Assembly: GCA_029863605.1 (NCBI GenBank) | Contig: JAOTVB010000003.1 | Coordinates: 20,333 to 84,332 of the forward strand | Direction: 5' to 3' | DNA from: Myxococcales bacterium | GTDB taxonomy: Bacteria > Myxococcota_A > Polyangia > Polyangiales > Houyiibacteriaceae | Length of the DNA: 64,000 nucleotides | Shown: positions 22,214 to 55,474 of the stretch, in pieces | How the letters are laid out: the number at the start of each line of letters is the position of its first letter | How positions within the stretch are numbered: position 1 is the stretch's first letter | Notes under the pieces: model-generated | Databases searched by the model: none | What the model was told of the DNA's origin: nothing | The model's input: the letters and a program-made list of their open reading frames with translations, nothing else | Translations under genes and position numbers: made by a program

Positions 22214-22555
22214 TCGACGAGCGAGTTGCACGTCGATGTTGCGCGAACGATAACAAGTCGTAATTCGAAGTGATTGCAACAGCTTGTCAACAGCAAAGCA
22301 ACGGCTCGTAACGCAGTGCGTGTTGCTGTCAAAAAAACGGCATTTGAATCTTTCGCGATCCCAAGTGTTTAGAAGTTTGTTGTGGGATCACCGTAGACGC
22401 ACTCGAAACAGGCTGCTAGTTTCGCGGCCCTTCACTGGAGGAGCGCCAACCGAATCGGCGGATGGTAAAAGGTGAACGGTAACTCGCCCTGAGCAACGTG
22501 TGGACGACTTGGGGACGAAGACGCTGATGTGCGCGGTTTTCGGGGTAGGGAGACG

Positions 22556-23908
22556 ATGGAACAATTGTGGGAACGGACACTTGGCAGTCTGAAGTCGCAT
22601 CTCTCCTCGGAGAACTTCGAAACCTGGCTCCAACCCGTTCAGTTTGGCGGGGTCGAGCCGGATTCCATCGTTCTACGCATCCCGAACCAGTTCTTCGCAG
22701 ATTGGATATCGGCGCACTACCTCGATCTCATTTTCGACACGCTCGATCGTGAGGCAGGCGACTCGAACGTACCGAAGAAGGTCCGCTGGGAGCTGGACGA
22801 AACCCTGCGTGAAAAAGCACAAGCTGCGCGAGAGTCGACAAAACGCCCTCCGCCGAGGGCGACTCCTCGTGAGCCGTCGGTCTTTTCAGACCTCAATCCA
22901 AAGTATCGCTTCAAGAATTTCGTGGTGGGGCCCGCAAATCAGCTTGCACACGCCGCAAGCGTCGCGGTCGGCTCCGATCCCGGTTCTCGCTACAACCCGC
23001 TTTTCATCTACGGCGGGGTTGGGCTCGGCAAGACCCATTTGGTCAACGCGATCGGTCATACCATCCTCCAACGCAATCCCCGCGCCCGCATCCGCTACGT
23101 TTCGGCTGAGCGCTTTACCAACGAGTTCATCTGGTCACTACAGAATCACGAGATCAGCGCGTTTCGAGACCGTTATCGCTCGCAGTGCGACGTCTTGTTG
23201 ATGGATGACATCCAGTTCCTCGCAGGGCGTGAGCAAACTCAAGAAGAGTTCTTTCATACCTTCAACGCCCTCTATCACTCGGACAAGCAGATCGTCGTCA
23301 CCTCCGACGTCTACCCCCAACAGATCTCGGAGATGCAGGAACGCCTGGTCAGTCGCTTTCAGTCCGGGATGGTCGCCGACGTGCAGGTTCCCGAGCTCGA
23401 CACTCGAATTGCGATCCTGCAAAAGAAGGCGGAGACCGAAGGGATCGCGCTCGTGAGCGAGGTGGCGCTTTTTTTGGCACAGATGGTTCGCAGCAACGTG
23501 CGTGAGCTCGAAGGAACACTCCTCCGGGTCGCCGTGAAGGCGGAGCTCTTGGGTCAGCCCATGGGGCTCGAGCTCGCCAAGGAAACGATGCGTCAGGTGA
23601 CTCCGAACCAAGACATGGCGACTACCGTCGAGGACATTCAACGGATCGCATGCGGGTACTTCGGTGTCCGTTTGACCGACTTGAAGTCCCGTCGCCGGCA
23701 TCGCGCCATCAGCTTTCCCCGGATGGTGTCGATGTACATTTGCCGTCAGCGTCTCGGCACCAGCTATCCTGAGCTCGGCGAGCGCTTCGGGGGAAAGGAC
23801 CACACCACGGTAATCAGCGCCGTACGCAAGATCAGCGGCTTGATCGAAGAGCAAGACGAGCGTGTCTTGAGCGCCGTGGGCGCCATCGAACGCAAGCTAG
23901 GCATCTGA
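22556..23908 (+). CDS. dnaA: Chromosomal replication initiator DnaA
   Basis: ATG at 22556 after GGGAG. MEQLWERTLGSLK.., Walker A GGVGLGKTHL, and a C-terminal DNA-binding helix (..HTTVISAVRKI..). Confidence 0.97.
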   Translation: MEQLWERTLGSLKSHLSSENFETWLQPVQFGGVEPDSIVLRIPNQFFADWISAHYLDLIFDTLDREAGDSNVPKKVRWELDETLREKAQAARESTKRPPPRATPREPSVFSDLNPKYRFKNFVVGPANQLAHAASVAVGSDPGSRYNPLFIYGGVGLGKTHLVNAIGHTILQRNPRARIRYVSAERFTNEFIWSLQNHEISAFRDRYRSQCDVLLMDDIQFLAGREQTQEEFFHTFNALYHSDKQIVVTSDVYPQQISEMQERLVSRFQSGMVADVQVPELDTRIAILQKKAETEGIALVSEVALFLAQMVRSNVRELEGTLLRVAVKAELLGQPMGLELAKETMRQVTPNQDMATTVEDIQRIACGYFGVRLTDLKSRRRHRAISFPRMVSMYICRQRLGTSYPELGERFGGKDHTTVISAVRKISGLIEEQDERVLSAVGAIERKLGI

Positions 23909-24044
23909 GAGCCGAAGGTGCTGAACCCGCTTTCTCAGGGCTCTCCTGCGCGGTTCTCCTGCGCCTAGCAGGCCGGGCCTTTCGCACACTTTTGGTGTAT
24001 ACCCGCCCCTGTGCGCGAAGTGCGATCAAGCTGGGGAACGCACC

Positions 24045-24053
24045 TGTGGATGA
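24045..24053 (-). promoter_or_regulatory. DnaA-box-like 9-mer (TCATCCACA)
   Basis: 8/9 match to TTATCCACA, read directly. Confidence 0.35.
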
Positions 24054-24204
24054 TGCGGGGTTCGATCAATCCCCACTTAGCGCACGATCAACCACGTCAC
24101 CAAAGTTCGCTCAAACCTTAGTTCTTCCGCTTGGTTACATTGCTTCATTCACAATTCACAGCTGTTAAGACGACGACGAGATCTTTAAATTAAGGATCCT
24201 AAGC

Positions 24205-24213
24205 AGTGGATAA
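24205..24213 (-). promoter_or_regulatory. DnaA-box-like 9-mer (TTATCCACT)
   Basis: 8/9 match to TTATCCACA, next to the AT-rich stretch at 24179-24203. Confidence 0.4.
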
Positions 24214-24253
24214 ACAGACAACGCCTTTCATTGGAGTCATGGAGTAACCCAAC

Positions 24254-25399
24254 ATGGAGCTTACGATCGAGAAGCAACAGTTCCTCCGTGGTCTCGCACG
24301 CACACACGGAGTCGCGGATCGCAAAAGCTCGATGCACATCCTGTCGAACGTGTTGCTGTCGGCAGAAGGGAACGACACCCTTCGGCTTTCTGCCACGGAT
24401 CTCTATCTTGGAGTCACCGCGGTCGTTTCTGCGAAGATCAAAGAGGGTGGCACCATAGCCGTGTCGGCTCGCACCCTATTTGACATCGTCAAGAATCTTC
24501 CTGACGGCGAAGTGAGCTGGAAGCTGAGTGACAGTCATGCGGTAGAGCTGAGCTGTGGAAAGGTGCGTTACCGAATTCCTGCGATGCCCGGCGAAGATTT
24601 CCCTCCTCTGCCCAATGCTGGCGACGCCGACTTGGTCGAGCTCGACGCTTCCGTCCTGGCGGATCTGATCGCGCTCACGCAATACTCGATGTCTCACGAT
24701 GACACCCGTCCGCATTTAGCGGGAACTTTGTTCGAGTGCGATGGAAAGGTCGTCCGTATGGTGACGACCGATGGTCACCGGCTATCGAAAGCCGAGCGCA
24801 AGGTTCCTGGAAAAGGCCCCAAAGGCAAGATGAAGAGTTTCAGCATGCTCGTGCCCCACAGAGGCATATCCGAGCTCAAGCGTCTTCTCGAAGACGTCAA
24901 AGCCACAAAGGGTAAGGGCGATGCGGAGACGACCATCGAGATTGCAACCGCAGGGGGTAATGCGTTCTTTCAACGCGACGACCTCTCCCTGAGCGTGAAG
25001 CTGGCAGACGAGCATTTCCCACCGTATGAGAAGGTGATCCCAAGCAAGCAGAGCCGAACGGTGATCGCTGCCCGGGGCCCCTTGGTCGAAGCGCTCCGCC
25101 GGATCAGCCTCGTCGCCAACGACAAGAGTGGCGGCGTGCAGCTGATAATCGAGCCTGGCACCCTGCGGTTGCAGAGCCAAAATCCCGACGTGGGCGAGGG
25201 CAGCGAAGAGGTAGACGTGGATTACGCGGGCGATGATCTACGGATCGGGTTCAACGCAAGGTATCTCCTCGATGCCCTCGGTGCGCTTCCCTACGACGAG
25301 ATCGCCTTGGAGCTCAGTGGGGAGCGTGACCCCGGGGTGCTCAAGCCGGTCGGAAACGGATCAGAGTTCATCGGCGTCATCATGCCTATGCGCATTTAG
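24254..25399 (+). CDS. dnaN: DNA polymerase III beta sliding clamp
   Basis: 381 aa with clamp-like three-domain repeats, directly downstream of dnaA. Confidence 0.97.
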   Translation: MELTIEKQQFLRGLARTHGVADRKSSMHILSNVLLSAEGNDTLRLSATDLYLGVTAVVSAKIKEGGTIAVSARTLFDIVKNLPDGEVSWKLSDSHAVELSCGKVRYRIPAMPGEDFPPLPNAGDADLVELDASVLADLIALTQYSMSHDDTRPHLAGTLFECDGKVVRMVTTDGHRLSKAERKVPGKGPKGKMKSFSMLVPHRGISELKRLLEDVKATKGKGDAETTIEIATAGGNAFFQRDDLSLSVKLADEHFPPYEKVIPSKQSRTVIAARGPLVEALRRISLVANDKSGGVQLIIEPGTLRLQSQNPDVGEGSEEVDVDYAGDDLRIGFNARYLLDALGALPYDEIALELSGERDPGVLKPVGNGSEFIGVIMPMRI

Positions 25400-25451
25400 G
25401 GCCGGGCCGTTGTCTGGTGATTCGCGCACGGTCGAAACGCCAACCCGAGTC

Positions 25452-26519
25452 GTGGTGTTGCGTGCTCGTGGGTTTCGAAACCTCGCGCCGCTGGCGTTCG
25501 AACCCGGTCCTCATTTCAACGTCATCCACGGAGACAACGGCGCCGGGAAGTCGAATCTTCTCGAGGCGATTCATTACCTCGGGGCGCTCAAGAGTTTTCG
25601 AGGTGCCAAGCGCGACGACCTGATCGGGCTCGATTCCGATACCGCCCTGCTCGACGCCACCATCTCAGGCGGCGCTGCACCTCACAAGCTTCGTGTGGAG
25701 CTCGGGAGATCCGAGCGCCGCCGCCTCCAGCTCGATCAAAAGCGACCACGCTCGAGCAGCATTTGGCATCAAACGGTCCAGATGGTGCTTTTTCATCCCG
25801 GCGACCTCATGCTTGCCGTAGGAGGTCCCGACCGGCGTCGCGCTTTTCTCGACCGGATGCTCGAGCAAATCGACCCTATCTATGGGTCGACCCTGGCAAC
25901 CTACGAGAAGGCCCTCCGGAGCCGCAACCGACTCTTGAAGGAGCCATCTGCCGAACGGCGTTCGGTACGCGCTTACGATGCCATCCTGAGCAAGGCAGGG
26001 GCCGTCGTGGGGAAGGCCAGAGCTCGATTGATCGACGACTTGGAGCCGAGGGTCACCCGCGCGTTCGCCGAGGTTTTCGGAGGTGATACTCCCCTCGGGG
26101 TTCGGTACCTGCCGCGGGTCGAGCCTACCGAGGAGGCGATCACCCAGGCGCTCGAGAGCTCGTTCGAGAAGGATTGCGCTCGAGGCTTCACGGCTGACGG
26201 TCCCCATGGTGATGACCTAGAGCTTCGACTTCACGACGTCGGCGCGCGTCATCACGGCTCTCAGGGTCAGCATCGGACGATCGTGTTGGCCCTGAAGACC
26301 GCCGAGCTCGATCTGTTGACCGAGCGCACCGGTCGGGTGCCGATCCTGCTGCTCGACGATGTGTCGAGCGAGCTCGACCGGAGCCGCAACCGGCGGTTCT
26401 TCGAAGTGCTGAGCCATGCGGGCGGGCAGGTCTTCCTGACCACCACGCATCCCGAGTTCATTTTGCTCGAAAACGACCGGGTCGACTTCCAGGTCGACGA
26501 CGGATGCGTCACTCGATGA
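25452..26519 (+). CDS. recF: DNA replication and repair protein RecF
   Basis: ..LRARGFRNL.., Walker A GDNGAGKSNLLEAI, C-terminal ..LLLDDVSSELD... Start is uncertain: GTG 25452 chosen, TTG 25410 possible. The track ORF start lies inside dnaN. Confidence 0.88.
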   Translation: MVLRARGFRNLAPLAFEPGPHFNVIHGDNGAGKSNLLEAIHYLGALKSFRGAKRDDLIGLDSDTALLDATISGGAAPHKLRVELGRSERRRLQLDQKRPRSSSIWHQTVQMVLFHPGDLMLAVGGPDRRRAFLDRMLEQIDPIYGSTLATYEKALRSRNRLLKEPSAERRSVRAYDAILSKAGAVVGKARARLIDDLEPRVTRAFAEVFGGDTPLGVRYLPRVEPTEEAITQALESSFEKDCARGFTADGPHGDDLELRLHDVGARHHGSQGQHRTIVLALKTAELDLLTERTGRVPILLLDDVSSELDRSRNRRFFEVLSHAGGQVFLTTTHPEFILLENDRVDFQVDDGCVTR

Positions 26520-28420: not shown

Positions 28421-29332
28421 ATGTGGGAGGGGAAGAGGGTGCCAGCATTCGAGCTCGAGGTCGAAGCGGAAGATGACGGTGCGCGGCTCGATGTCGTGCT
28501 GGCGCGGCGCGCCCCCGGTCTGAGCCGAGGTCGAGTGAAGGCGCTTTTCGCACTGGGAGAGGTCCGGTTGAATGGGAGGCGCGCGAAGAAGAGCGCTTTG
28601 GTAGCAACCGGGGATCGCGTGACCCTCGAATCGCTTCCGGGCCCAGCCGACTTTCACGCGACTCCGGATCCGGCTCTCGACATCGATGTGGTCGTCGAAC
28701 GTGGGGGATACGTGGTAGTCGAAAAACCCTCCGGCGTTCCGAGTCATCCCCTTCGAGAAGGCGAGCTCGGTACGTTGGCCGGAGCTCTCGTCGCTCGTTA
28801 CCCCGAGATGCGCGGTGTCGGTTACCGCAAGCGCGAACCCGGAATCCTGCATCGCCTCGACAACGACACATCCGGGTTGATGCTTGCCGCTCGTGACCAA
28901 TCGACTTTCGAGGCGCTTCGTGAGCAACTGCAGGCGGGCGAGATCGAAAAGCGATACGTCGCTCGCTGTGCCGGAATCGTCGTCGCGCCACAGATCATCG
29001 ACGCTCCTATCGCCAACGACCCCCGCGACCGGAGAAAGGTTCGTGTCTGCCGTGACCCCCGTGAAATCAAACGGCTAGACGCTCAGCCTGCATATACGGA
29101 GATCTTGCGGAGCGAGCCGGACGAAGCTGGCTCGTGTGTCGAGGTGCGCGCCAACGATGCCCGCCGCCATCAAGTGCGTGTACATCTAGCGTCGATCGGC
29201 CATCCGCTCGTAGGCGATACGCTCTATGGTGGCCCGACCCTCCCTGGCCTCGACCGCCACTTTCTCCACGCCAGCTATCTATCCTTTACCGACCCGAAAA
29301 CGGGTGCGCGTTCTGCCATCCGAAGCCCCTGA
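28421..29332 (+). CDS. RluA-family pseudouridine synthase
   Basis: ATG at 28421. S4-like N-terminus (..RLDVVLARR..), catalytic ..HRLDNDTSGL.., and ..RHQVRVHL... This is the only coding part of the 760-aa track ORF. Confidence 0.85.
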   Translation: MWEGKRVPAFELEVEAEDDGARLDVVLARRAPGLSRGRVKALFALGEVRLNGRRAKKSALVATGDRVTLESLPGPADFHATPDPALDIDVVVERGGYVVVEKPSGVPSHPLREGELGTLAGALVARYPEMRGVGYRKREPGILHRLDNDTSGLMLAARDQSTFEALREQLQAGEIEKRYVARCAGIVVAPQIIDAPIANDPRDRRKVRVCRDPREIKRLDAQPAYTEILRSEPDEAGSCVEVRANDARRHQVRVHLASIGHPLVGDTLYGGPTLPGLDRHFLHASYLSFTDPKTGARSAIRSP

Positions 29333-29367
29333 AAGTTCGCGAGAACTCGACGGTGACCGCAACGTCG

Positions 29368-30552
29368 TCAGAAGGGGATCCGCAGGCCGGCTTGGGAGAT
29401 GACCTGATTTCCGAAGGCGTTGGTGTTCCAGCGATAGTTGAAGCTGATATCGAACTGGGCGCCCGCGATCGAGCGGTGGGCGCGGCCTTCGAGGAAAGAT
29501 CCGAGGACCAAGAACTGGATGCCGACCTCGTTGACTTGAAACGCGCTCATCTTTGGGTCGTTGGTGACGTAGCGATCCTCGAACGTGTACGCGTTGGGGT
29601 CGTTCTTGTAGAAGAACGCCGACGTCTGTTTGTAGTAGCGGTAACGAAGGCGGGTTTGGAAGTATGGAGACATCTCCTGGTAAATGCGCACCTCTGGGTT
29701 GATCGCCGAGATCGACCAGTCATCGAAGTAGGATCGATAGATCGCCTGGAGCGAAGTGCGCGAACGCGGGATGTACCAAGCGACGCGCGAGTAGAGGAGA
29801 TTGCGTAGGCGGAGGTCCGGGTGTTCTTCCGGGCGCTGTCCGCCGAGCACCGAACGATACGGATTCGCTAGAAACCCCGACTGCACCGTGAAGTCGTAGG
29901 CAACCTCGAAGATCAGCGTGGGCGTCAGAGCTTGCTCCCACCCGACCGCCATCGATACCGCATCGAGTCTTTCACCGAAATCGCTGCCGCGAGTACCGTC
30001 CTCGCCGGGCCTCATCTGCGTGCCTCCCCGGAAATTCTGGCCGATTTCGTCGTGTAAGTACGTCACCCGTCCGAGCAGCCGCGTGGCCCTGTCGGCAAGC
30101 CAAATCGACGGCTGAAAGAAGGCGCTGAACGAAAAGTAGTCCGGCTCCTTGCTGAACCGCGTGCCCCCCCACAGGTCGACCGGGTTTTCGCGATCAGAGA
30201 ATTCGTGTCCACCCTTGATCGAAACATCGTGGCGGATTTCGTTGAAGCGGGTGTCCTCGAGGGCGCCGGCCGCGATGCTTGCGCTCGTGATCGAGTCGAC
30301 GAGGTAGTCGACGCGGAGGCGGCTTCCCTGCGGCGCTTCGAGCTGCGCGATGATCTCGGGCGCCACCACCCGCGTGCTTCGATCCCAGTAGTAGTTTCCA
30401 CGAAGTTGCACGTCACCGGTCCAAGTACCGGTCACCTCGTCGGCGTGGGAGCCACCAGGAGGCAGTCCGAGGAGAGCGATCCCGGCCACCAGTAGCACCC
30501 GAACGAACGCCCAACCCGGGCACCGTCGAAGAGCCGTCAGTTGCACCCGCAA
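29368..30552 (-). CDS. DUF3570-like outer-membrane beta-barrel protein
   Basis: 394 aa with a signal peptide, beta-rich throughout, ending ..GLRIPF. Contains D-S-I-T-S-A-S at 30277-30297. Start is TTG 30552 or GTG 30546 and overlaps the upstream stop. Family call is from memory of DUF3570/DUF4266 synteny. Confidence 0.7.
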   Translation of the reverse strand: MRVQLTALRRCPGWAFVRVLLVAGIALLGLPPGGSHADEVTGTWTGDVQLRGNYYWDRSTRVVAPEIIAQLEAPQGSRLRVDYLVDSITSASIAAGALEDTRFNEIRHDVSIKGGHEFSDRENPVDLWGGTRFSKEPDYFSFSAFFQPSIWLADRATRLLGRVTYLHDEIGQNFRGGTQMRPGEDGTRGSDFGERLDAVSMAVGWEQALTPTLIFEVAYDFTVQSGFLANPYRSVLGGQRPEEHPDLRLRNLLYSRVAWYIPRSRTSLQAIYRSYFDDWSISAINPEVRIYQEMSPYFQTRLRYRYYKQTSAFFYKNDPNAYTFEDRYVTNDPKMSAFQVNEVGIQFLVLGSFLEGRAHRSIAGAQFDISFNYRWNTNAFGNQVISQAGLRIPF

Positions 30553-30848
30553 CCGCCGCCGGCGTTGCCGAGGCCCCCGGTGGCGCCCTCTCGGGCGTCG
30601 AGCACGTGCGAATAAAACTTCGCTTCGGTGGCTTCACGCTGGAAGTCCATACTCGGCCGGGACAGGTATTCGCGCTCATACGGCTTGACGGTCGCGCAGC
30701 CCCCGACCGCAAGAGCCGAAAAGACCGCAACAAGAACGCCAAGCTTGAGCGCTAGAAACCTGGGTTTTCGTCGATACCGTCGTCGGTGAGATGACGCGCG
30801 AGGGCGACGAGTGGAGTGAGGAATATGCGGGTGGTTGTTCGCAGCCAT
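30537..30848 (-). CDS. DUF4266-like small lipoprotein (C-terminal GGGCGCN)
   Basis: Lipobox ..ALAVGGC, then ATVKPYEREYLSRPSMDF..AREGATGG..GGGCGCN. The only start I could find in frame is ATG 30848, which gives a 97-nt overlap with the upstream gene. Confidence 0.7.
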   Translation of the reverse strand: MAANNHPHIPHSTRRPRASSHRRRYRRKPRFLALKLGVLVAVFSALAVGGCATVKPYEREYLSRPSMDFQREATEAKFYSHVLDAREGATGGLGNAGGGCGCN

Positions 30849-32743
30849 GGGTGCTCAGCAATGAAATCGGCGGCATACGGACCGACGACGTAATACACGT
30901 CGACGAAAGCCCGGCCGGCTCGGTTAGTCATCAGATAACGATCACGAAAGCGCCGAAGCGCCCAAATCTCGTCGGCAAGGGGCGACCCATAGGCGGCGGT
31001 CGCGACAAAGCACGGGGGGACGGTAGTGAAGTCGATGCGGGTCGTGGTCAAGGTTGCACGCGCTGCTGCGCTCCGTCCTTGGCAGATGTCGACGGCAGAT
31101 ATTTCGACCTCGTACTCGGCCTCGTGTTGGTCGAAGGCGATGTCGACCTCGAGGAGATCACCCGCGTCGAGGCAATCCCCATCGCCATCGCGATCGAGGC
31201 CGTTTTCGCACTCTCCTGCGGAGTTCGATACGTAAGGAGCGCACAGGGTCTCCGTCCATGTGCCGCCTTTGCAATCGCCATCCACCGGGATTTGCAGCCG
31301 GTCGCCGACCACCGGTCGGTCGTCCTCACTGAGCGCCACAGCTCTTGCCTCGTCGACCGCGATCCCATCGGTCGTTAGAATTTCGTACTGGCGCAATGGC
31401 AATAGGCTCGGAGGCACGGTGAACGCGAGGCGGCCTACGCGGTGGGACCACTTGGGATTGGGGTGATTCTCGATCGCGAGATCGACGATTGCAGCTGGGG
31501 CACCGTCTAGGTCGCAAGCGCCCACGCATCGATCTTCCGGACCACAGATGAAGCCGAAGTCGCATTGTTCGGAGTCGGTGCAAGGCTGGCTGCACTGTGG
31601 CGGCGGATCGGGCTGGCCGCAGATGTTGGTCGTGAGCACGCTGAGGGTTGCGCGAGTCCCTGCGACATCTTTGCGGAGCCGATCAGCGCCGCTTCCAGGC
31701 GCACCTTCCGGGTCGTCGGTGATCGAATCGTCCATGGTGATCATCGCGCCGTCTTCGCCGTGAAGGCTGCCGTAACCGATCGGGTCGACCGCGGTGTGGG
31801 TGGCGATCGGCACTCCTAGTGTGAACGGAATGCTGTAGACGACCGAGGGTTGCCCACGATAGGGGTAACCATAGGTCTGCGCCCAGAAATCAAAGCCGTC
31901 CGACATGGGCGCGGGATAGGTGACGTCGTTGAACACGTCGTTGTAGTCGCCCTCGACGTTCACCTCGACGAAAGCCGTATACTCGCCATCTTCCCATTCG
32001 CCCGGCACGAGATACTGGATCGCGATCGGCTGGTCCGCAGCGGGTGTGGCCATCGTCACGGCGTCGATTTCGGGCATGACGCGCTCCGCCTCGTCGATGA
32101 ATCGCGCCACGTCGGGATGATCGAACTCGCCGAGCCCGACGACGTCGCGGCGCGGCGGATAGAGCGAGCCCATCCCGAGGGCGCGCATCGTTTCGCTTCC
32201 AGACGGTAGGACGAATGGCTCTCCGTACCCGTTGCTCACGTCTTGCCCGCTCATGAAGCGACCCTTGTCGCTGTTGAAAACGCTTGCGCAGGTGACCGCG
32301 TCGAGGGCCTCTCGAGTCGTCGTCGTCTGGTCGAACGACAGACAAAAGTAGCTGTCAGGAGATGCGTCGACCGTATTCCGGGTCGCAAAACCTTCGGATA
32401 TTCGATCCTGGAAGATCACGAGCGGAAAGACCTCTGCACCTGGGGCCGTCGCGCGGCGCCAACCCCAAACGGGAAGAATTCCTTCGCGGCGCCCGTAAGG
32501 CCACCGAAAGCCGCTGTTCATCTGCAATGCGCCGGGACGATTGCCGACGCCCCGGAGGGCCACGGACGAGGTGAGCCGGACGGTGCCCATGAACGTGCCG
32601 TCGTCGCGCTCGATCCAGATTGCGATCTGCGCACGCTCGGTGGGGGTGAAGCTGAGCTCGAGGAGGCGTGCTTGAGCCGCGCTCACCCCGGAGCTTGCTA
32701 GCCAAGCTGCAACGACCCATAGGCTAAGCCATCCAAAGCGCAT
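30752..32743 (-). CDS. Large secreted protein, function unknown (Cys-rich / Asp-rich middle, C-terminal CFVATAAYGS module)
   Basis: 663 aa, signal peptide MRFGWLSLWVVAAWLASSGVSAAQA. Two DAVT[CM]A[ST] motifs. Cys-rich segment ..CGQPDPPPQCSQPCTDSEQCDFGFICGPEDRCVGAC.. and Asp-rich segment ..DRDGDGDCLD... Confidence 0.75.
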   Translation of the reverse strand: MRFGWLSLWVVAAWLASSGVSAAQARLLELSFTPTERAQIAIWIERDDGTFMGTVRLTSSVALRGVGNRPGALQMNSGFRWPYGRREGILPVWGWRRATAPGAEVFPLVIFQDRISEGFATRNTVDASPDSYFCLSFDQTTTTREALDAVTCASVFNSDKGRFMSGQDVSNGYGEPFVLPSGSETMRALGMGSLYPPRRDVVGLGEFDHPDVARFIDEAERVMPEIDAVTMATPAADQPIAIQYLVPGEWEDGEYTAFVEVNVEGDYNDVFNDVTYPAPMSDGFDFWAQTYGYPYRGQPSVVYSIPFTLGVPIATHTAVDPIGYGSLHGEDGAMITMDDSITDDPEGAPGSGADRLRKDVAGTRATLSVLTTNICGQPDPPPQCSQPCTDSEQCDFGFICGPEDRCVGACDLDGAPAAIVDLAIENHPNPKWSHRVGRLAFTVPPSLLPLRQYEILTTDGIAVDEARAVALSEDDRPVVGDRLQIPVDGDCKGGTWTETLCAPYVSNSAGECENGLDRDGDGDCLDAGDLLEVDIAFDQHEAEYEVEISAVDICQGRSAAARATLTTTRIDFTTVPPCFVATAAYGSPLADEIWALRRFRDRYLMTNRAGRAFVDVYYVVGPYAADFIAEHPWLRTTTRIFLTPLVALARHLTDDGIDENPGF

Positions 32744-32834
32744 GACTTGAGCAGCCTAGCCGGCTGGGTTTTGCCACTCAAGGAAACGCCTCGAGGGAAA
32801 TTTTTCGTCGTCCTTTCAGGCGGTTAGGCCGACC

Positions 32835-34874
<2,040 letters not shown>

Positions 34875-34928
34875 GGGCAAAGGCTATCACCGCTTGAAAA
34901 AGGGGAAAGTCGCCGTACATCAAGGTTC

Positions 34929-35630
34929 ATGGATTTGGGACGCTTTTGGGATGTGACCACTTCGACGGCAGCCAGCGCCGCCCGTCCCAACTTCGGCAAC
35001 GTTCACTACGAACGCACGAAGAGCCCGACGCAGCCGCTCGAGCTCTACGAGTTCGAGGTTTGTCCGTATTGCCGCATCGCTCGTGAAGCGCTCTCGGCTT
35101 TGAGTCTCGACCCGATCATCTATCCGTGCCCGAAAGGCGGCCGGCGGTTTCGCGAAAAGGTGAAGCGGGAAGGGGGCCGTTATCAGTTCCCCTACTTGGT
35201 CGATCCCAATACCGGGGTTGCGATGTACGAGTCTGCCGATATCGTCGACTATTTGTTTTCCGAGTATGGCAACGGGCAGGCGCCTTGGTTCCTCCGGCAG
35301 CGCGGCTTTGCGGTGTCGACGTCGATGCTCGCATCCAGCTTCCGCCCGTTCAAAGGTCGCCAGGCCGTGCCTTCACGCGAGCCGGAGGAGCTCCTCGAGC
35401 TCTATTCGTACGAGGGCTCGCCGTTTTGCCGCATCGCGCGCGAGGCCCTCTGTGAGCTCGAGCTTCCGCATCGAGTTAGGAACGTTCCGCGGCGAAGCCC
35501 CGATCGCGAGGGCTTCGTTGCCGTCTCCGGCAAGATGCGGGTGCCCTACCTGCTCGACCCCAATACCGGCACGCAAATGTTCGAGTCCGACGCGATTCGC
35601 CGCTATCTCTACGGGACCTACGCCCAATAG
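34929..35630 (+). CDS. Tandem glutaredoxin/GST-N-like domain protein
   Basis: ATG at 34929. Two homologous halves, ..YEFEVCPYCRIAREAL.. and ..YEGSPFCRIAREAL... Confidence 0.7.
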   Translation: MDLGRFWDVTTSTAASAARPNFGNVHYERTKSPTQPLELYEFEVCPYCRIAREALSALSLDPIIYPCPKGGRRFREKVKREGGRYQFPYLVDPNTGVAMYESADIVDYLFSEYGNGQAPWFLRQRGFAVSTSMLASSFRPFKGRQAVPSREPEELLELYSYEGSPFCRIAREALCELELPHRVRNVPRRSPDREGFVAVSGKMRVPYLLDPNTGTQMFESDAIRRYLYGTYAQ

Positions 35631-43451: not shown

Positions 43452-44138
43452 TCACCAGCCGAGGATTGCGACCATGACGCCGGTGGCGACGATGAGGGCA
43501 CCCGCCGTGCTATCACCGTAACGCTCGAGCCATTTGCCTTTGAAGAGACGGGCGCCTGAATGGGCCACCGCTACCAGGGCGACCATCGTTCCAATCGTCG
43601 CCGCTTCGTACGCAACCACGATCGACGCGGTTTCGATGCCAGACAGAGGAGCAGCTGCAAACAAGATCGGAATGACCGCGACGCAGGGGTCTGCGCAGTA
43701 GATCAAGAACAACGACCAAGTCGACGCACGCGATGCATCGTGGACGTGATCGTAGTGATGATGGTGATGACCGTGCAGGCGGTGAGCGAGCGAGTGCCGA
43801 AAGCCCCAGACTGCGTACGCCACTCCGAAGCCGATCAAAAGAAGCCCTGCCACCGACTCCATCTTCTCTCCGAGTGACTCGAACAAGTGGGCCCCAAACA
43901 TCAATGCCAGGAGGCCGAGGAGCACCGAGATCGTGACGTGGCCGAGGCCGCAAAGGAGGGCCACCCGTGCCGTGTGGCTGCGCGACCAGCTTCGCGCGCG
44001 CGCGACGGCCGCGATGGGGACCCAGTGGTCCGGCGCCAGAGAATGCAATGATCCCACGGTGATAGCGGCCATCGTGAGTGTGGCAAAAAGGCTAGTGGTG
44101 CTCATGGCTGTGCTCATGACTGTGCGCGTGATGCTCAA
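43452..44138 (-). CDS. Putative nickel/cobalt permease (HX4DH motif, His-rich loop)
   Basis: About 6 TM helices. ..HSLAPDHW.. fits the NiCoT-type H-x4-D-H signature. Loop ..HRLHGHHHHHYDHVHD... Start is uncertain (ATG 44138, 44117 or 44105) and overlaps the hypB 3' end. Confidence 0.6.
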   Translation of the reverse strand: MSITRTVMSTAMSTTSLFATLTMAAITVGSLHSLAPDHWVPIAAVARARSWSRSHTARVALLCGLGHVTISVLLGLLALMFGAHLFESLGEKMESVAGLLLIGFGVAYAVWGFRHSLAHRLHGHHHHHYDHVHDASRASTWSLFLIYCADPCVAVIPILFAAAPLSGIETASIVVAYEAATIGTMVALVAVAHSGARLFKGKWLERYGDSTAGALIVATGVMVAILGW

Positions 44139-44841
44139 GCGATGTGGACCCCGAGCGTTGCGCGGGCCGCTGGGCCTCGAGCCACTCGAGCCATGCGTCG
44201 ATCCCCTCGCCCGTCTTTGCAGAAACCTTCAGGAGCTTTGCGTCGGGCATGACTCTCGAAAGGGCGTCTTCGACCGCGTGGACGTCGAAGTCCAAGTGGG
44301 GGATCAAATCGACCTTGGTCAACAGTACCAGGTCTGCCTTTTGAAACATGACAGGGTACTTCAGCGGTTTGTCTTCGCCTTCGGTGACCGAGAGCGCGAC
44401 GACGTTTGCAGCTTGGCCGAGATCGTAGATCGCGGGGCAAACCAGGTTCCCCACATTCTCGATGAAGAACACATCGCAATCCGAGCATGGAGCGTGATGC
44501 AAGGTGTGATGCACCAGCCGCGCGTCGAGGTGACAAGCCGAGCCAGTGGTGATCGTGGTCGACCGAATCCCTGCGGCGTTCAACCGGTCGGCGTCGCGAT
44601 CGGTTGCGAGGTCGCCGCTCACCGCTCCGAGACGAAGCCTCCCTCCGGCTGCTCGGGCGGTGGCCTCGAGAACTGCCGTCTTTCCGGCTCCTGGGGAGCC
44701 CATCAAGTTGATGGCAAGCACCGCTAACCCTTCGAAATGACGACGATTATGGGCTGCCTGCGCATCGTTGTCGGAGAGGATCCGCTCCTGCACCTCGACC
44801 GGGACGATCTCGGGGTCGCCGCATCCACAGGTCTCACACAT
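44092..44841 (-). CDS. hypB: Hydrogenase nickel-incorporation GTPase HypB
   Basis: MCETCGCG N-terminal metal site, GSPGAGKT P-loop, ..ENVGNLVCP.., His-rich C-terminal tail ..EHHAHSHEHSHEHH. Confidence 0.95.
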   Translation of the reverse strand: MCETCGCGDPEIVPVEVQERILSDNDAQAAHNRRHFEGLAVLAINLMGSPGAGKTAVLEATARAAGGRLRLGAVSGDLATDRDADRLNAAGIRSTTITTGSACHLDARLVHHTLHHAPCSDCDVFFIENVGNLVCPAIYDLGQAANVVALSVTEGEDKPLKYPVMFQKADLVLLTKVDLIPHLDFDVHAVEDALSRVMPDAKLLKVSAKTGEGIDAWLEWLEAQRPAQRSGSTSLEHHAHSHEHSHEHH

Positions 44842-45181
44842 CGGGGGCCTCCATTTCGATTCGTTCGAGGATGATCTCGTCGCCGTGAATCATCCGTGCG
44901 GGACGTCCACAGGTATCGCACCGCAACACGGCACCTCTCGCGATGACACGGTCACAACTCGGACAGGCCCAGACCGCGGCGACTGAGTCGATTGCGAGCT
45001 CCGCGCCTTCACAGATTGTCCGCTCACGAAAAGTGTCGAACGCCGTCTTCAGTAGATCGAGCTCGACACCGGCGAGCTCGCCGATCTTCACGTGGAGACG
45101 ATGCACGCGCGTGCTCCCGTGAAGCACTGCTTCTTGCTGCACGCGGTCGATGAGGGAACCGACGATGGAGTACTCGTGCAT
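44834..45181 (-). CDS. hypA: Hydrogenase nickel-insertion protein HypA
   Basis: ATG at 45181 gives MHEYSIV... Two CxxC pairs (CPSC, CDTC). Confidence 0.93.
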   Translation of the reverse strand: MHEYSIVGSLIDRVQQEAVLHGSTRVHRLHVKIGELAGVELDLLKTAFDTFRERTICEGAELAIDSVAAVWACPSCDRVIARGAVLRCDTCGRPARMIHGDEIILERIEMEAPDV

Positions 45182-45182
45182 G

Positions 45183-46028
45183 TCATCCCTCGCTTTCGAA
45201 ACGTGGAGCACGCTTCTCGAAAAACGCCGCGATGCCCTCGGCAAAGTTCGGCCCATCAGCAATGCGCGCGAGCTCGGTCAGCTCCGCGTCGAGGTGGACG
45301 TCGAGCCGGTCCATCCCGGCCGCCTGGTTGAGGAGGTTCTTGGCAGCGGCGACCGCGGACGTCGGGGCTTCGGCAAGCTGAGTAGCGATTTCGAGAGCTT
45401 TCTCGCCGAAGGAATCATCCGGAAAAACCCGGTTGATCAGCCCCCATTCCAAGGCGTCTCGAGCCGATAGACGCGGGTTCAGCAGGACGAGCTCGAGCGC
45501 CTTTCGTAGCCCCAACAACCGCGGCAAAAAGAAGGTGGAGCTCTCCGCACCGGTCAGGCCCGTCTTGAAGTAGGCCCATTCGAACCACGCGCGCTCCGAT
45601 GCGACGACGAGGTCGCAACTCATGGCGATCCCGAAGCCCCCGGCGGCCGCAGGGCCATCGACCGCGGCGATGAACGGCTTTGGCGCGCGCCGAATCTCCG
45701 AAATGGTGCTGTGGATGTATTCGAGGATCTGTTTGAAGATCTCGCCGTAACCCTCCGTCGGTTGGCAAGTGCTCGGCTGCAGGTAACCGAGGTCGGTGTC
45801 GTCGCCTCCGTCGCGGATGTACTTGAGGTCGGCGCCGCTACAAAATACGCCGCCTTCGCCACAGATCAAAACCGAACGAACCTCTTTGTCTCGCGCGAGT
45901 CGGAGGCCGGCCTTCCTGAAGTCTTGAGCCGTCTCGACATCGAGAGAGTTCAGTCGCTCGCGGCGAGCGATCGTCAGGATGCCCACGGGGCCACGTCGTT
46001 CGACTCGGATGTGTTTCATCTCGGTCAT
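45183..46028 (-). CDS. Crotonase-fold (enoyl-CoA hydratase/isomerase family) protein embedded in the hyp operon
   Basis: ATG at 46028 lies 1 nt after the hypE stop codon. Its own stop codon ends 1 nt before the hypA ATG. ..GEGGVFCSGADL.. and ..FIAAVDGPAAAGGFGIAMSCD.. are oxyanion-hole segments. Confidence 0.85.
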   Translation of the reverse strand: MTEMKHIRVERRGPVGILTIARRERLNSLDVETAQDFRKAGLRLARDKEVRSVLICGEGGVFCSGADLKYIRDGGDDTDLGYLQPSTCQPTEGYGEIFKQILEYIHSTISEIRRAPKPFIAAVDGPAAAGGFGIAMSCDLVVASERAWFEWAYFKTGLTGAESSTFFLPRLLGLRKALELVLLNPRLSARDALEWGLINRVFPDDSFGEKALEIATQLAEAPTSAVAAAKNLLNQAAGMDRLDVHLDAELTELARIADGPNFAEGIAAFFEKRAPRFESEG

Positions 46029-46029
46029 G

Positions 46030-47070
46030 TCAGCAGATCCTAGGTAAGAGCTCGCCTTCGGCCTCCGAGAGCAAACGGCTCCCAAACCCCGTATCGAGCA
46101 CGACGAACCCGGGTCGCTCAGCCACGCATTGTCCGACGATTGCAGCCATTCGTCCGAGCGGGTGCGAGCGGATCGCGTCGAGAACGCCGGCCGCGCTTTC
46201 AGGCCGAACGCCAAATACTGCCTTTCCTTCGTTCGCCGAAACCAGCGGGTCGATGCCAAGCAGTTCCCCGACCGCACGAACCTCGTCGCGCAACGGGATC
46301 GACGGCTCATCGATCACGATCCCAACCCCGCTCTTCTCGGCCATCTCGTGCAGGGCGCTCGACAAGCCACCGCGCGTGGGATCTTTCAGCGCGACGATCC
46401 CGTCGCCTCCGACCTCGAGCGCACGTCGGACCATGGTATTGATCGGAGCGACGTCCGAAACGAGCTCGGTTTCCAAGGCCAGCTCGTTTCGCGTCGCCAT
46501 GATCGCCAGACCGTGATCTCCCATCGTTCCTGTCACCAGGATTTGGTCCCCAGGCTCGAGCCCGGCATCGGTCACGATTCGGTCGGTGATGCCCACGCCG
46601 GTCGTGTTCAACACCAGGCCGTCGAGCTCGCCGTGCCCCATCACTTTCGTGTCGCCGGTGACGATAGTCGTTCCCGCTTCTTCGCAGCACGTGCGGATCG
46701 ACTTCCAGATGCCCTTCAACGTCTCGCGGGAAAACCCATCTTCGACGATCGCGGCGCAGGTGAGCGCAAGCGGCTCAGTAGCTCCCATCATCGCGAGATC
46801 ATTGACGGTTCCGGCGACAGCGAGCGTTCCGATGTCGCCTCCCGGAAAGACGATCGGCTGGACCACGTGAGAGTCGGTCGTGATCACCAGGTAGCGATCG
46901 CCCAGTCGGATCGCCGCACCGTCGTCCATCGCCGCCAAGCCGACGTTTCCTTCTCCTAGGTCGCCGAGGCCCTTGGCGAAGATCTGCTCGATCAGCGCGC
47001 GCATCGCGCCACCGCCGGTGCCGTACTTGAGCGTGATGCGCTCGTCGATGAGGCGGGCGTTTCGAGTCAT
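46030..47070 (-). CDS. hypE: Hydrogenase maturation protein HypE
   Basis: 346 aa PurM-like fold with C-terminal ..PRIC. Confidence 0.95.
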   Translation of the reverse strand: MTRNARLIDERITLKYGTGGGAMRALIEQIFAKGLGDLGEGNVGLAAMDDGAAIRLGDRYLVITTDSHVVQPIVFPGGDIGTLAVAGTVNDLAMMGATEPLALTCAAIVEDGFSRETLKGIWKSIRTCCEEAGTTIVTGDTKVMGHGELDGLVLNTTGVGITDRIVTDAGLEPGDQILVTGTMGDHGLAIMATRNELALETELVSDVAPINTMVRRALEVGGDGIVALKDPTRGGLSSALHEMAEKSGVGIVIDEPSIPLRDEVRAVGELLGIDPLVSANEGKAVFGVRPESAAGVLDAIRSHPLGRMAAIVGQCVAERPGFVVLDTGFGSRLLSEAEGELLPRIC

Positions 47071-48215
47071 GCGACACCTCGCTTCATCGAGCTGAGATCG
47101 GGGTGGCCGCCGTACTGATGCCAGATCCTGCAGGTGCCTTCAGCGCTGACCATGCACGCACCGACCGGCGTGTCGGGCGTGCACTCTTTGCCGAACAAGG
47201 AGCAGTCGGAGGGTGAGGCGATCCCGGCCATGATGTCTCCGCACTGGCATTGCTGAACGAGCTTCGGCGGTGCGTAGCTCCACAACGCAGACGCGTCGAT
47301 CGTGAACCGCTTTCTCGTGTCGTAGCGGGCGAACTCGTCCCGCAATCGGAGGTTTCCGTTGGGCACGTGCGCGATGCCTCGCCAACGGCCTCCCGTAGGC
47401 CGAAAAACGCGCCAAAGAAGCTCCTGAGCGTGCGCGTTGCCTTCCCGTGTGACGCATCGGGGATAGGCGTTTTCGACCTTGGCCTCCCCTGCGTTGATCA
47501 GCTCGAGCAGTCGAACGAGGCCCGCAAGAACGTCCAAGGGTTCGAAGCCCGCCACCACGACCGGCAAACGGTGACGTTCGACGAATTTTTCGAAAACCGC
47601 CGAGCCGGTGATCGTGGCTGCATGGCCCGCTGCGAGAAAGCCCTCGATCTTGGTCTCGGGCATCTCCGCCACGATCTCCATGACCGGGGGGATGTACTTG
47701 TGTGCGGAGAGGACGGAAAAATTGTCGGGCGGATCGTCCACGAGGACAGCCGCGGTTGCGACTGCGGTCGTCTCGAAGCCCGACGCAAAGAAGACCAGCT
47801 CCTCGTCGGTGTCACGGGCGAGGTCGACCGCTTGCGTGACGCTGTAGACCACGTCGACATGGGCGCCGTCGGCCTTGGCGTCGGCGAGCGATTGCGAGGT
47901 TCCCGGCACGCGAAGCATGTCGCCGTAGGACGCGATGCGTACGCCCTGCTTGGCGAGGGCTACCGCTTCGTCCACTTCTGGCACATCCGTCACACAAACC
48001 GGACAGCCTGGGCCCATTATAACCCGCAAATCAGCCGGAAAAGCAGCCCTCAAGCCGAACTTCGCGATCGCCTGCTCGTGGCTGCCGCAGACGTGCATCA
48101 CCGAAACCGGAGCATGATCGGCGCGAGACACCAAGCGCTCGAGGGCGTCTCTCAGGGCCCGCGCCCGAACTGGATCGCGAAATTTTAGCTGCGCAAGCGC
48201 GTCATTCGGAAGCAT
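47067..48215 (-). CDS. hypD: Hydrogenase maturation protein HypD
   Basis: 382 aa. ..MHVCGSHE.., ..GPGCPVCV.., ..FETT... Confidence 0.95.
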   Translation of the reverse strand: MLPNDALAQLKFRDPVRARALRDALERLVSRADHAPVSVMHVCGSHEQAIAKFGLRAAFPADLRVIMGPGCPVCVTDVPEVDEAVALAKQGVRIASYGDMLRVPGTSQSLADAKADGAHVDVVYSVTQAVDLARDTDEELVFFASGFETTAVATAAVLVDDPPDNFSVLSAHKYIPPVMEIVAEMPETKIEGFLAAGHAATITGSAVFEKFVERHRLPVVVAGFEPLDVLAGLVRLLELINAGEAKVENAYPRCVTREGNAHAQELLWRVFRPTGGRWRGIAHVPNGNLRLRDEFARYDTRKRFTIDASALWSYAPPKLVQQCQCGDIMAGIASPSDCSLFGKECTPDTPVGACMVSAEGTCRIWHQYGGHPDLSSMKRGVA

Positions 48216-48525
48216 CGTAGGCCTCCCTTGCTGAGGGCGCAGCGTAGGGTGCGGCGTCGATCTCGGACCGTATGTCCTGGGTTATCAGGTCTTGGTCATC
48301 CGCGAGCCGCAAGAGCTCGTCGTAGAGCGCGAGAGTTTCGATCGCCTCGTCGGGAGGAATGCGACGGATCGCAAACCCGACGTGGTTCAGAATGTAGTCG
48401 CCCGGTGCTACCGGCACGTCACAGACCTCGAGGCGCACCTCCTTCTTCACGCCCCAAAAATCGACTGTCGCGGTGTTGCGATCACGATCGACGGCGACGA
48501 CCTGCCCTGGAACACCTAAGCACAT
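48202..48525 (-). CDS. hypC: Hydrogenase maturation chaperone HypC
   Basis: ATG at 48525 gives MCLGVPGQVV.. (essential N-terminal Cys2). The C-terminal tail is longer than usual. Confidence 0.9.
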   Translation of the reverse strand: MCLGVPGQVVAVDRDRNTATVDFWGVKKEVRLEVCDVPVAPGDYILNHVGFAIRRIPPDEAIETLALYDELLRLADDQDLITQDIRSEIDAAPYAAPSAREAYDASE

Positions 48526-50807: not shown

Positions 50808-51205
50808 GGCCCGTTTCCTGAGACGCTCAGAACATAGGTGACCACCTCCCACTTTTCTTGGTCCGTCAAGGTGGGCCACGCGGGCATCGAGGTCCCGCGT
50901 TTGCCTTCGCTCACGACCGCGTAGACGCCGCGCGGCGTCGCACTTGCACGCCACTCCTGGCTTTGAAAGTTGACGGGTCGCGCCGAGAGCCCTTCCTGCC
51001 GCACGCCGTTTCCATCGGCACGCACGCCGTGGCACAGGGCACACTTCTCGCTGAAGATCGCACGCCCACGCACGCGCGCCTCGTCCGAAGCGAGGAGACC
51101 GGCAGGCACCGGGAGGTTCCGATAATCGGTCGGGAGGCGCCCATCAACGCCGTTACACGCCGAGAGTGCGAGCGACATGATCAACGCTCCTCGTGCTGTT
51201 CTCAT
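50804..51205 (-). CDS. Class I c-type cytochrome, probable lipoprotein
   Basis: ..LALSAC lipobox, a single CALCH haem motif, ..GTSMPAW.. (axial Met region). Start is ATG 51205 or 51178. Its stop overlaps the hypF ATG (ATGA). Confidence 0.75.
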   Translation of the reverse strand: MRTARGALIMSLALSACNGVDGRLPTDYRNLPVPAGLLASDEARVRGRAIFSEKCALCHGVRADGNGVRQEGLSARPVNFQSQEWRASATPRGVYAVVSEGKRGTSMPAWPTLTDQEKWEVVTYVLSVSGNGP

Positions 51206-51701
51206 GGCGATCCAATCGTCGAATCGGCGGATAACCGAGCGTGCGGAGCTCCTCCACGACTCGCTCGACGAGCTCGGGAATGCTGGCTTCGACCGCTTCG
51301 GTACGGCCAAGGCCGAGGTCGATGCTTTGTGGGACTACGCCGATCAACACCACTCGGTCCGGGTAGCGGTCGAGCAGGCTTGCTCCTGCGAGCAGGTCCG
51401 CGACCCCAATTTGATGCGGGGACAAGCGCTCGTAGACAGCGGGGGCTACTTCGTCGCCCTCGATCCTGACGAGCGTTCCAGGTGGCCCCTCAGCGCGGAT
51501 CGCGTCGACCATGATCACCTGCTCGGCGCTGTCGACGAGTGGCAAGAGCGACAGCCCGAGCGTGCCTCCGTCGAGCGCCAACACACCCTCCGGAAGATCG
51601 TACTCCCGGAGCAGCTTGTGGATCGCCGCGATGCCCGCTCCATCGTCTTGGCAAACCACGTTGCCAAGTCCGAGGACCAACACCGGCGTCCGCTCACTCA
51701 T
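51153..51701 (-). CDS. [NiFe] hydrogenase maturation endopeptidase (HyaD/HupD family)
   Basis: ..VLVLGLGNVVCQDDGAG.., ..VDAIRAEGPPG.., ..SPHQIG... Confidence 0.9.
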   Translation of the reverse strand: MSERTPVLVLGLGNVVCQDDGAGIAAIHKLLREYDLPEGVLALDGGTLGLSLLPLVDSAEQVIMVDAIRAEGPPGTLVRIEGDEVAPAVYERLSPHQIGVADLLAGASLLDRYPDRVVLIGVVPQSIDLGLGRTEAVEASIPELVERVVEELRTLGYPPIRRLDRHENSTRSVDHVARTLGV

Positions 51702-55261: not shown

Positions 55262-55474
55262 CGCTGCCTCCTCGCTGTTGGTAAGCAAAGGTCGGGCCGG
55301 ACGTGGACATCCGGTCGCAGCGACCGTAACCGTGCGAAATTCGTCGGAACAAGCTCGTTCTGCGAGTTGAAAGCGCTTTTCATCGCATCGCGTATTTCTT
55401 TCGCGAGGAAACTGCCGAGCGCACTTTCTGCGCGCATTTGGTGACTACCAAGTACACGGTGTAGCATCGGTGGG

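Follow-up and report, generated by a model that had tools for sequence, protein, structure and literature searches.

Gene organization of the locus

The locus described here comprises three co-directional minus-strand open reading frames (ORFs) between uvrB (32835-34880) and a convergent rluD-like gene, on a 64-kb stretch (the window, to which coordinates refer unless a locus number is given) of a 283-kb marine metagenome contig from a Myxococcales bacterium (order Polyangiales; JAOTVB010000003.1). The same trio was found again on other contigs. An initial annotation of the window had read the locus as an operon of overlapping genes for a candidate undescribed envelope redox system, in which a secreted 663-residue protein, a DUF4266-like lipoprotein and a DUF3570-like barrel carry three heptads resembling the sites at which ApbE attaches flavin mononucleotide (FMN), each without its Gly. 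The number and direction of the three genes and the family identities of the lipoprotein and the barrel are borne out here (Table 1), and all three products are predicted to be exported, as a Sec protein, a small lipoprotein and an outer-membrane barrel. The overlap holds for the first two genes. Ahead of the DUF4266 lipobox (AVGGC, Cys51; 30696-30710) the DNA offers a single canonical start, the ATG at 30848, and a gene that begins there overlaps gene 1 by 97 nt. For the barrel gene it depends on an ambiguous start: TTG 30552 or GTG 30546 would overlap the end of gene 2 by 10-16 nt, and the alternative GTG 30498 would leave a 38-nt gap. An Rfam scan of 28800-33400 returned no FMN or other riboswitch, and a scan for promoters and terminators found them no more often than in shuffled sequence.

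The N-terminal 320 residues of the large protein encoded by gene 1 appear to be a DUF2271 domain split by an insert of ~130 residues. The intact protein scores 16.2 bits against PF10029 (residues 222-269), below the Pfam gathering score of 27.3, while a construct lacking the insert (residues 24-66 joined to 200-320) scores 25.0 bits (E=1.7e-5, profile positions 15-111 of 136) and two homologues exceed the cut-off (P0083 and P0110, at 28.8 and 27.4 bits); the split-domain assignment follows from the construct and these homologues. Such scores point to superfamily relatedness rather than clean family membership. The large protein had been taken to fill the place of missing partners without an identity of its own, a view that its place in the DUF2271 superfamily overturns.

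Gene 2 matches the whole DUF4266 profile (PF14086) over residues 54-103 with 72.1 bits against a cut-off of 27 (E=7e-20), and combines this match with a lipoprotein signal and a C-terminal CXC. Its last residues, GGGCGCN (30540-30560), recur as the end of 56 of 60 related ORFs. DUF4266 also has a conserved D[AS]REGAT sequence (residues 83-89, window about 30582-30602) that resembles D-x-x-x-G-A-T. As a possible fourth site of the acceptor type it was set aside, since some family members end it in Asp or Pro, which makes it an unlikely acceptor. Public gene calls shorten gene 2 to 37 residues from an internal Met (also in the related locus L001, 12094-12207), so that the lipoprotein signal is lost along with half the Pfam domain, and on some contigs (L004, L006, L010) the DUF4266 gene is not called.

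Gene 3 scores 87.4 bits against DUF3570 (PF12094; cut-off 25, E=1.2e-24), and 1123 relatives are present in a representative library. The product has a signal peptide, an all-beta AlphaFold2 model (pLDDT 89, pTM 0.84) and a C-terminal RIPF, and its best matches by Foldseek in the Protein Data Bank (PDB) are the porins OmpG and OccD (E~1e-9). On the basis of this model, DUF3570 is a porin-like outer-membrane beta-barrel, an identity that fits the inclusion-body behaviour reported for a Chlorobium DUF3570 protein (PMC8238504) and that would place the putative flavin at the outer membrane.

Two heptads fall on the acceptor columns of DUF2271 and DUF3570

DUF2271 and DUF3570 have both been shown by experiment to be flavinylated by ApbE at [S/T]GA[S/T] (Meheust et al. 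2021, eLife, PMC8238504), a study that the initial annotation had cited accurately, and the link that it drew to ApbE-dependent flavinylation holds. The motif D-x-x-[S/T]-G-A-[S/T] is a linear 7-residue sequence that is sufficient as a flavinylation tag, and in a model substrate ~50% of flavinylation remains after a Gly-to-Ala change (review PMC12052999). None of the three trio proteins contains [ST]G[AG][ST]. As had been noted, they carry the heptads DAVTCAS (heptad 1) and DAVTMAT (heptad 2) in the large protein and DSITSAS (heptad 3) in the barrel, all of the form D-x-[IV]-[ST]-x-A-[ST]. This form is expected 0.015 times in the 1160 residues of the trio and found 3 times; none of 20000 shuffles reached at least three copies, and it occurs nowhere in the other ~16,300 residues of the called proteins of the window. 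Chance resemblance in three unrelated secreted proteins, earlier called very unlikely, is in our view scarcely credible. The pattern was loosened with the sequences already in view, and DAVTCAS does look coincidental, yet beyond this excess two of the heptads coincide exactly with acceptor columns in curated models of two independent families, and both are kept in hundreds of homologues. For heptads 2 and 3 chance is already refuted.

The conservation of heptad 3 was followed in the barrel and 102 DUF3570 representatives, clustered at <=50% identity from a search of 1.84 billion proteins. DSITSAS shares alignment columns with DAITGAT, DIVTGAT and DAVSGAT of distant DUF3570 proteins, in which a second canonical site follows ~11 residues after the first. 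Across the 103 sequences the heptad keeps its Asp in 101, Ile or Val at position 3 in 99, Thr or Ser at position 4 in 102, Ala in 99 and a terminal Ser or Thr in 101. At position 5 Ser is the usual residue (85 sequences), with Ala and Gly in 7 sequences each. Most of these nearest ~100 DUF3570 clusters thus carry a heptad without Gly, and surveys for [S/T]GA[S/T] would miss them.

Heptad 2 reads D-A-[VI]-[TS]-x-A-T in ~170 homologues of the large protein that span 31-100% identity. All aligned members end the heptad in Ala-Thr, and exceptions to the leading Asp and to Thr/Ser at position 4 are rare, while as many as ten residues (M, T, R, Q, L, A, F, V, S and G) occur at position 5. A metagenomic sister clade has the canonical SGAT at this site, with Ala in place of the leading Asp. 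The genes of these SGAT-type homologues (L105-L110, e.g. L108 8275-13785) lie between an alpha-amylase-family gene and lnt (apolipoprotein N-acyltransferase), with no DUF3570 or DUF4266 gene nearby.

In silico single substitutions were scored against the two Pfam profiles, together with control substitutions. For the barrel (87.4 bits against PF12094), a Gly in place of Ser at position 5 raised the score to 93.1 (+5.7 bits), and D-to-K (82.5), A-to-L (84.1) and K for the last S (84.9) lowered it by 2.5 to 4.9 bits, against a loss of 0.9 in the control (86.5). For the construct of the large protein without its insert (25.0 bits against PF10029), M231G raised the score to 28.9 (+3.9 bits), and D227K (22.1), T230K (21.0), A232L (20.4) and T233K (20.8) cost 2.9 to 4.6 bits, with the two controls at 24.2 and 23.1 (-0.8 and -1.9).

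Heptad 1 behaves differently. Its family pattern is D-A-[VIM]-[TSA]-C-[AP]-[ST], with a Cys as invariant as Cys134, frequent Ala-to-Pro changes and some changes of Thr/Ser to Ala. An invariant Cys and changes of this kind are unlike the variation of an acceptor, and heptad 1 is therefore probably not a flavin acceptor. Of the three flavinylation sites first proposed, two are retained here: DAVTMAT and DSITSAS, judged by their alignments, are positional homologues of the proven DUF2271 and DUF3570 acceptor sites with only the Gly replaced, whereas DAVTCAS belongs to a lineage-specific insert. The same division applies to conservation among homologues, which is nearly complete for Asp, Ser/Thr, Ala and the terminal Ser/Thr at heptads 2 and 3 and gives way at positions 4 and 6 of heptad 1. 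The candidate acceptor residues evolve under strong purifying selection, although apbE is missing from their neighbourhood.

Architecture of the large protein

Beyond the split DUF2271 domain, the large protein continues through a Cys-rich linker and a fibronectin type III (FN3)/Ig-like beta-sandwich to a C-terminal CFI-box-CTERM (Table 1). The AlphaFold2 model (pLDDT 78, pTM 0.77) returned generic FN3/Ig matches only by Foldseek, and a PDB sequence search with the large-protein profile gave nothing meaningful. Invariant Cys residues of the linker are C375, C384, C388, C394, C400, C406 and C410, and homologues show weak TIL/DUF7107 matches here. The CFI-box-CTERM is assigned by a C-terminal, full-length match to its profile (96.4 bits against a cut-off of 40), and the model places helices at residues 588-653. 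A search of the literature on the CFI-box found nothing; it is presumed to be an anchoring or sorting module. The family has more than 1145 members, all from Polyangiales/Sandaracinaceae-type metagenome-assembled genomes (MAGs) labelled Polyangiales, Sandaracinaceae, Myxococcota or 'Deltaproteobacteria'.

Table 1 Features of the three-gene locus, in window coordinates.
Feature	Coordinates	Strand	Description
Gene 1 (large protein, 'BIG')	30752..32743	-	ORF, 663 aa, exported; DUF2271 split, Cys-rich, FN3/Ig-like, CFI-box-CTERM
Signal peptide, residues 1-23	32675..32743	-	MRFGWLSLWVVAAWLASSGVSAA; no lipobox Cys; Sec type; modelled helix 2-16
DUF2271 N-terminal half, residues 24-66	32546..32674	-	RAQIAIWIE strand; in the PF10029 match of the joined construct
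Insert, residues 67-199, ~130 residues	32147..32545	-	Conserved, lineage-specific; contains GNRPGALQMNSGFRWPYGRREG and YPPRRD
Heptad 1 DAVTCAS, residues 148-154, large protein	32282..32302	-	In the insert, outside the DUF2271 core
DUF2271 C-terminal half, residues 200-320	31784..32146	-	PF10029 match at residues 222-269
Heptad 2 DAVTMAT, residues 227-233, large protein	32045..32065	-	On the DUF2271 acceptor columns; Thr233 candidate FMN acceptor
Cys-rich linker, residues 375-410	31514..31621	-	Six to seven invariant Cys
FN3/Ig-like beta-sandwich, about residues 415-570	31034..31501	-	Foldseek PDB matches are FN3; fn3 Pfam matches in homologues
CFI-box-CTERM, residues 578-646	30806..31012	-	NCBIfam NF041770; CFVATAAYGS, then three helices
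Gene 2	30537..30848	-	DUF4266 lipoprotein, 103-aa precursor, mature ~53 aa
Gene 3	29368..30552	-	DUF3570 outer-membrane beta-barrel, 376-394 aa depending on start, ends RIPF
Heptad 3 DSITSAS, residues 86-92, barrel	30277..30297	-	First of two DUF3570 motif positions; Ser92 candidate FMN acceptor

The insert is the most conserved part of the large protein, with near-invariant columns in 118 homologues and many invariant Arg, Asp, His, Trp and Cys residues. It matches no Pfam or PDB family, and model confidence falls below pLDDT 50 at residues 68-85 and 114-154 despite this near-invariance. These segments may form a ligand- or partner-dependent region, in which low confidence and conservation often coincide. 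The insert thus invites a reading independent of ApbE, close to the earlier idea that the large protein stands in for the missing partners: the insert, or another unlinked enzyme, would attach flavin or another phosphoryl-linked group, and the large protein, encoded at the place that ApbE and TlpA hold in canonical clusters, would replace ApbE. The protein has no similarity to any transferase, however, and its own acceptor-type motif makes it look like a substrate; moreover, its solo paralogues lack a DUF3570 gene nearby and some DUF3570 genes of the Ser type, that is, with Ser in place of the Gly, occur without it (L009, L012). We regard this ApbE-independent reading as highly unlikely.

Relatives and gene neighbourhoods

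Among the loci collected, the trio is widespread in Polyangiales. Approximately 50 of 80 species-level Polyangiales genome loci carry uvrB, the large protein, DUF4266 and DUF3570 in this order, with a Ser-type barrel, and the other ~30 hold solo or tandem paralogues of the large protein in unrelated settings. In two distant high-GC lineages the large-protein gene again directly precedes a Ser-type DUF3570 gene, in two tandem copies in one (L098) and without a DUF4266 gene in the other (L100). Because of this direct succession in ~50 of 80 loci and in both of these lineages, the two proteins look like dedicated partners. Ser-type DUF3570 genes without the large protein are those of Sandaracinus amylolyticus (L009) and of L012. 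In S. amylolyticus the protein encoded between uvrB and the DUF4266 gene was examined as a diverged homologue of the large protein and proved to be an unrelated Gly-rich lipoprotein. The neighbours of the solo paralogues (among them genes for a GGDEF protein, a peptidase, a beta-propeller, a radical-SAM enzyme, an alpha-amylase and Lnt) share no common redox theme.

The large-protein gene occurs in two or three tandem copies at many loci (L033, L039, L084, L087, L098, L120-L124, L129, L148, L150, L160-L164), and some genomes hold two unlinked copies. One copy in metagenome arrays (L120-L122, L124, L129, L140, L160, L161) has the signature DAITCPT / DAVAAAT.

The order uvrB, trio, dnaJ, a peptidyl-prolyl isomerase gene, recF, dnaN and dnaA is syntenic in many Polyangiales MAGs, and it places the trio in a conserved region beside the replication origin; in the window dnaA, dnaN and recF (22529-26519) are a few kb away. 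The protein encoded divergently from uvrB (34626-35630) has two glutaredoxin/GST_N_3-like repeats, and its position is kept in relatives. Farther off, a complete [NiFe]-hydrogenase cluster on the minus strand (about 44000-55300) encodes small and large subunits, cytochrome b, a HycI protease, a c-type cytochrome and hypF/C/D/E/A/B. At 57728-61984 an Omp85-family gene and a gene of unknown family are followed by a HAMP histidine-kinase gene and a redoxin gene. The TlpA/AhpC-like redoxin gene (61439-61984) overlaps the end of the histidine-kinase gene, 29 kb from the trio.

Missing partners and the fate of the putative acceptor sites

Clusters of ApbE, DUF3570, a thioredoxin-like protein and DUF4266 have been described with or without DsbD (PMC8238504). 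The initial annotation had reported ApbE and TlpA to be absent from the operon, and Pfam annotation confirms this. We favour a reading in which the trio is a lineage-specific variant of this module whose proteins still accept flavin, and several observations weigh against it. Pfam annotation covering almost all of the 64-kb window contains no ApbE (PF02424), PF13899 thioredoxin-like protein or DsbD, and the distant redoxin is the only TlpA-like, thioredoxin-fold periplasmic candidate in the window. A phmmer search with E. coli Ftp found no ApbE in the window, nor in 1.62 Mb of genome loci and 0.73 Mb of metagenome loci (~180 related loci), where the ApbE screen used this one E. coli sequence; the screen for thioredoxin-like proteins and DsbD covered the window. 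By comparison, 543 published DUF3570 clusters have an adjacent ApbE (PMC8238504). No gene for an electron donor or acceptor is linked to the trio, which is flanked by housekeeping genes (uvrB, rluD, dnaJ, recF, dnaN and dnaA). To our knowledge, bulky residues such as Met, Arg, Gln and Phe have never been shown to be accepted by ApbE at the Gly position. Furthermore, the barrel has the single Gly-less site TSAS and lacks the second canonical DUF3570 site, where ApbE-associated DUF3570 proteins have two. It therefore differs from the ApbE-associated subgroup both in its motifs, which are not [S/T]GA[S/T], and in its neighbourhood; likewise, the large protein has T-M-A-T on the columns where flavinylated DUF2271 proteins have [S/T]GA[S/T].

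Part of this evidence is less telling than it seems. Two canonical loci with Gly-type DUF3570 also lack apbE, L011 over 10 kb upstream and 3.4 kb downstream and L095 over 8 kb upstream and about 3 kb downstream, so that linkage to apbE is not obligatory and its absence from the neighbourhood is weak evidence of independence from ApbE. A literature search on ApbE in Myxococcota found nothing usable.

The same facts could be explained if the trio proteins were degenerate, flavin-free descendants. After losing their linkage to ApbE, thioredoxin and DsbD, they would have taken on a non-redox role in the envelope, for example by anchoring or displaying the FN3/CFI-box protein through a complex of porin and lipoprotein, with the motif residues kept for folding. 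Besides the absent partner genes, the lost Gly of [S/T]GA[S/T] in all three proteins and the missing second site of DUF3570, this reading gains from the composition of the large protein, which is mostly FN3/Ig-like with a C-terminal domain of the anchoring type, from its paralogues that stand alone in unrelated contexts, and from the unrelated Gly-rich lipoprotein that takes its place in S. amylolyticus. A dead acceptor should drift, however, and yet few positions in the barrel are as conserved as Asp, Ser/Thr, Ala and the terminal Ser/Thr, and these residues also barely vary at heptad 2 across the identity range of the large-protein family. Variation is confined to a position that mutagenesis shows to be partly dispensable, and the CXC end of DUF4266, a proposed redox element, is also invariant. 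We consider degeneration a serious possibility, though on the whole a doubtful one.

Proposed role of the trio

Our preferred explanation, held tentatively and at somewhat less than even confidence, is that the operon is a lineage-specific variant of the DUF4266/DUF3570 flavinylation-associated module with a dedicated DUF2271-family partner, in which both proteins remain flavin acceptors through an unlinked ApbE and would form a relay with the CXC lipoprotein. Covalent flavin on the large protein and the barrel is plausible. An ApbE-type flavin transferase, with its gene at another place in the genome, would still attach FMN through a phosphoester bond to Thr233 (D-A-V-T-M-A-T) and Ser92 (D-S-I-T-S-A-S). 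Because the target of ApbE is a linear heptad, the enzyme could do so in the periplasm, ahead of barrel insertion. The two flavins and the CXC thiols would then constitute a short electron-transfer relay at the interface of periplasm and outer membrane, and the replaced Gly would mark a relaxed or co-evolved recognition position, not the loss of a site. A retained acceptor role is the most economical account because the motif residues are strongly conserved and only a partly dispensable position varies.

Two more novel possibilities, which we rate together as unlikely, go further. The heptads without Gly may mark a distinct modification system that attaches flavin or another phosphoryl-linked cofactor without canonical ApbE, perhaps with the help of the insert, or the porin-like barrel, the CXC lipoprotein and the anchored DUF2271-type protein may form a flavin-thiol conduit across the outer membrane.

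Among the routes of extracytoplasmic electron transfer, ApbE-dependent covalent flavinylation is a major one that is only partly charted, and the DUF3570/DUF4266 module is among its least understood parts. The component families are already known, and the module has been described and is uncharacterised; 'undescribed system' was thus too strong a term for what is a variant of it. New here are the Gly-less acceptor variant that, on the alignments, dominates this DUF3570 branch; the pairing with a split-DUF2271/FN3/CFI-box protein; the consistent absence of ApbE neighbours, together with that of thioredoxin-like and DsbD genes in the window screen; and the model-based recognition of the barrel as porin-like. 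In Polyangiales and no fewer than two further lineages, a single operon physically couples DUF2271 and DUF3570, two 'new' substrate families. Flavinylation of the sites would mean that the recognition rule of ApbE must widen and would make many 'orphan' substrates predictable; without it, the trio would offer a clean natural case of a flavoprotein family given a new use.

Comparison with known systems

The closest relatives are the ApbE-DUF3570-DUF4266-thioredoxin-like clusters (PMC8238504), with which the trio shares a CXC-ended DUF4266 lipoprotein, an adjacent DUF3570 barrel in the same order and, in that barrel, an acceptor-type heptad at the same alignment position. Unlike them, it has no ApbE, thioredoxin-like protein or DsbD nearby, its barrel has one acceptor-type site in place of two with Gly changed to Ser (D-x-I-T-S-A-S), and it adds an upstream DUF2271-family gene and sits among housekeeping genes beside uvrB. 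The large protein in turn resembles the flavinylated DUF2271 proteins of PepSY-like, iron-associated clusters (Amantichitinum ursilacus; PMC8238504, PMC11334425) in its recognisable DUF2271 beta-sandwich core, its export and the heptad on the acceptor columns of the profile. It differs in being ~5 times larger and below the Pfam cut-off, with the domain split by the insert, in the replacement of Gly by Met or other residues, in its extra Cys-rich, FN3 and CFI-box-CTERM modules, and in its partnership with DUF3570/DUF4266 rather than with PepSY-like reductases.

JDVT-CTERM proteins are encoded beside DUF4266, DUF3570 and TlpA genes in some Pseudomonadota, and the exported JDVT-CTERM protein has been proposed to work with the DUF4266/DUF3570 pair (Haft 2023 preprint, 10.1101/2023.06.07.544157). 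Like the trio, these clusters combine the pair with an exported protein whose C-terminal domain, for sorting or anchoring, contains Cys, and the comparison concerns this domain. In contrast, the trio has a CFI-box-CTERM, no nearby CPBP/MrtJ protease and no TlpA, and belongs to a different phylum. By analogy, the JDVT-CTERM case is a precedent for a C-terminally sorted partner. A separate observation concerns L095 (6547-9955), where a two-motif DUF3570 gene (DIVTGAT...DILTGAT) and a DUF4266 gene adjoin a gene for an Rce1-like CPBP protease, which recalls the JDVT-CTERM/MrtJ neighbourhoods of Haft.

Porin-cytochrome conduits such as MtrAB(C) are haem-based, and the barrel of MtrB has 26 strands. 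The trio has no haems, its barrel is much smaller (of the 14-18-strand type by Foldseek), and its putative cofactors are flavin and thiols. The likeness is one of functional analogy only, in that each system would join an outer-membrane barrel to two redox proteins, a small one that is periplasmic or a lipoprotein and a larger, anchored one. Should the trio form a flavin-thiol conduit of the kind considered above, it would be a haem-free counterpart of the porin-cytochrome complexes.

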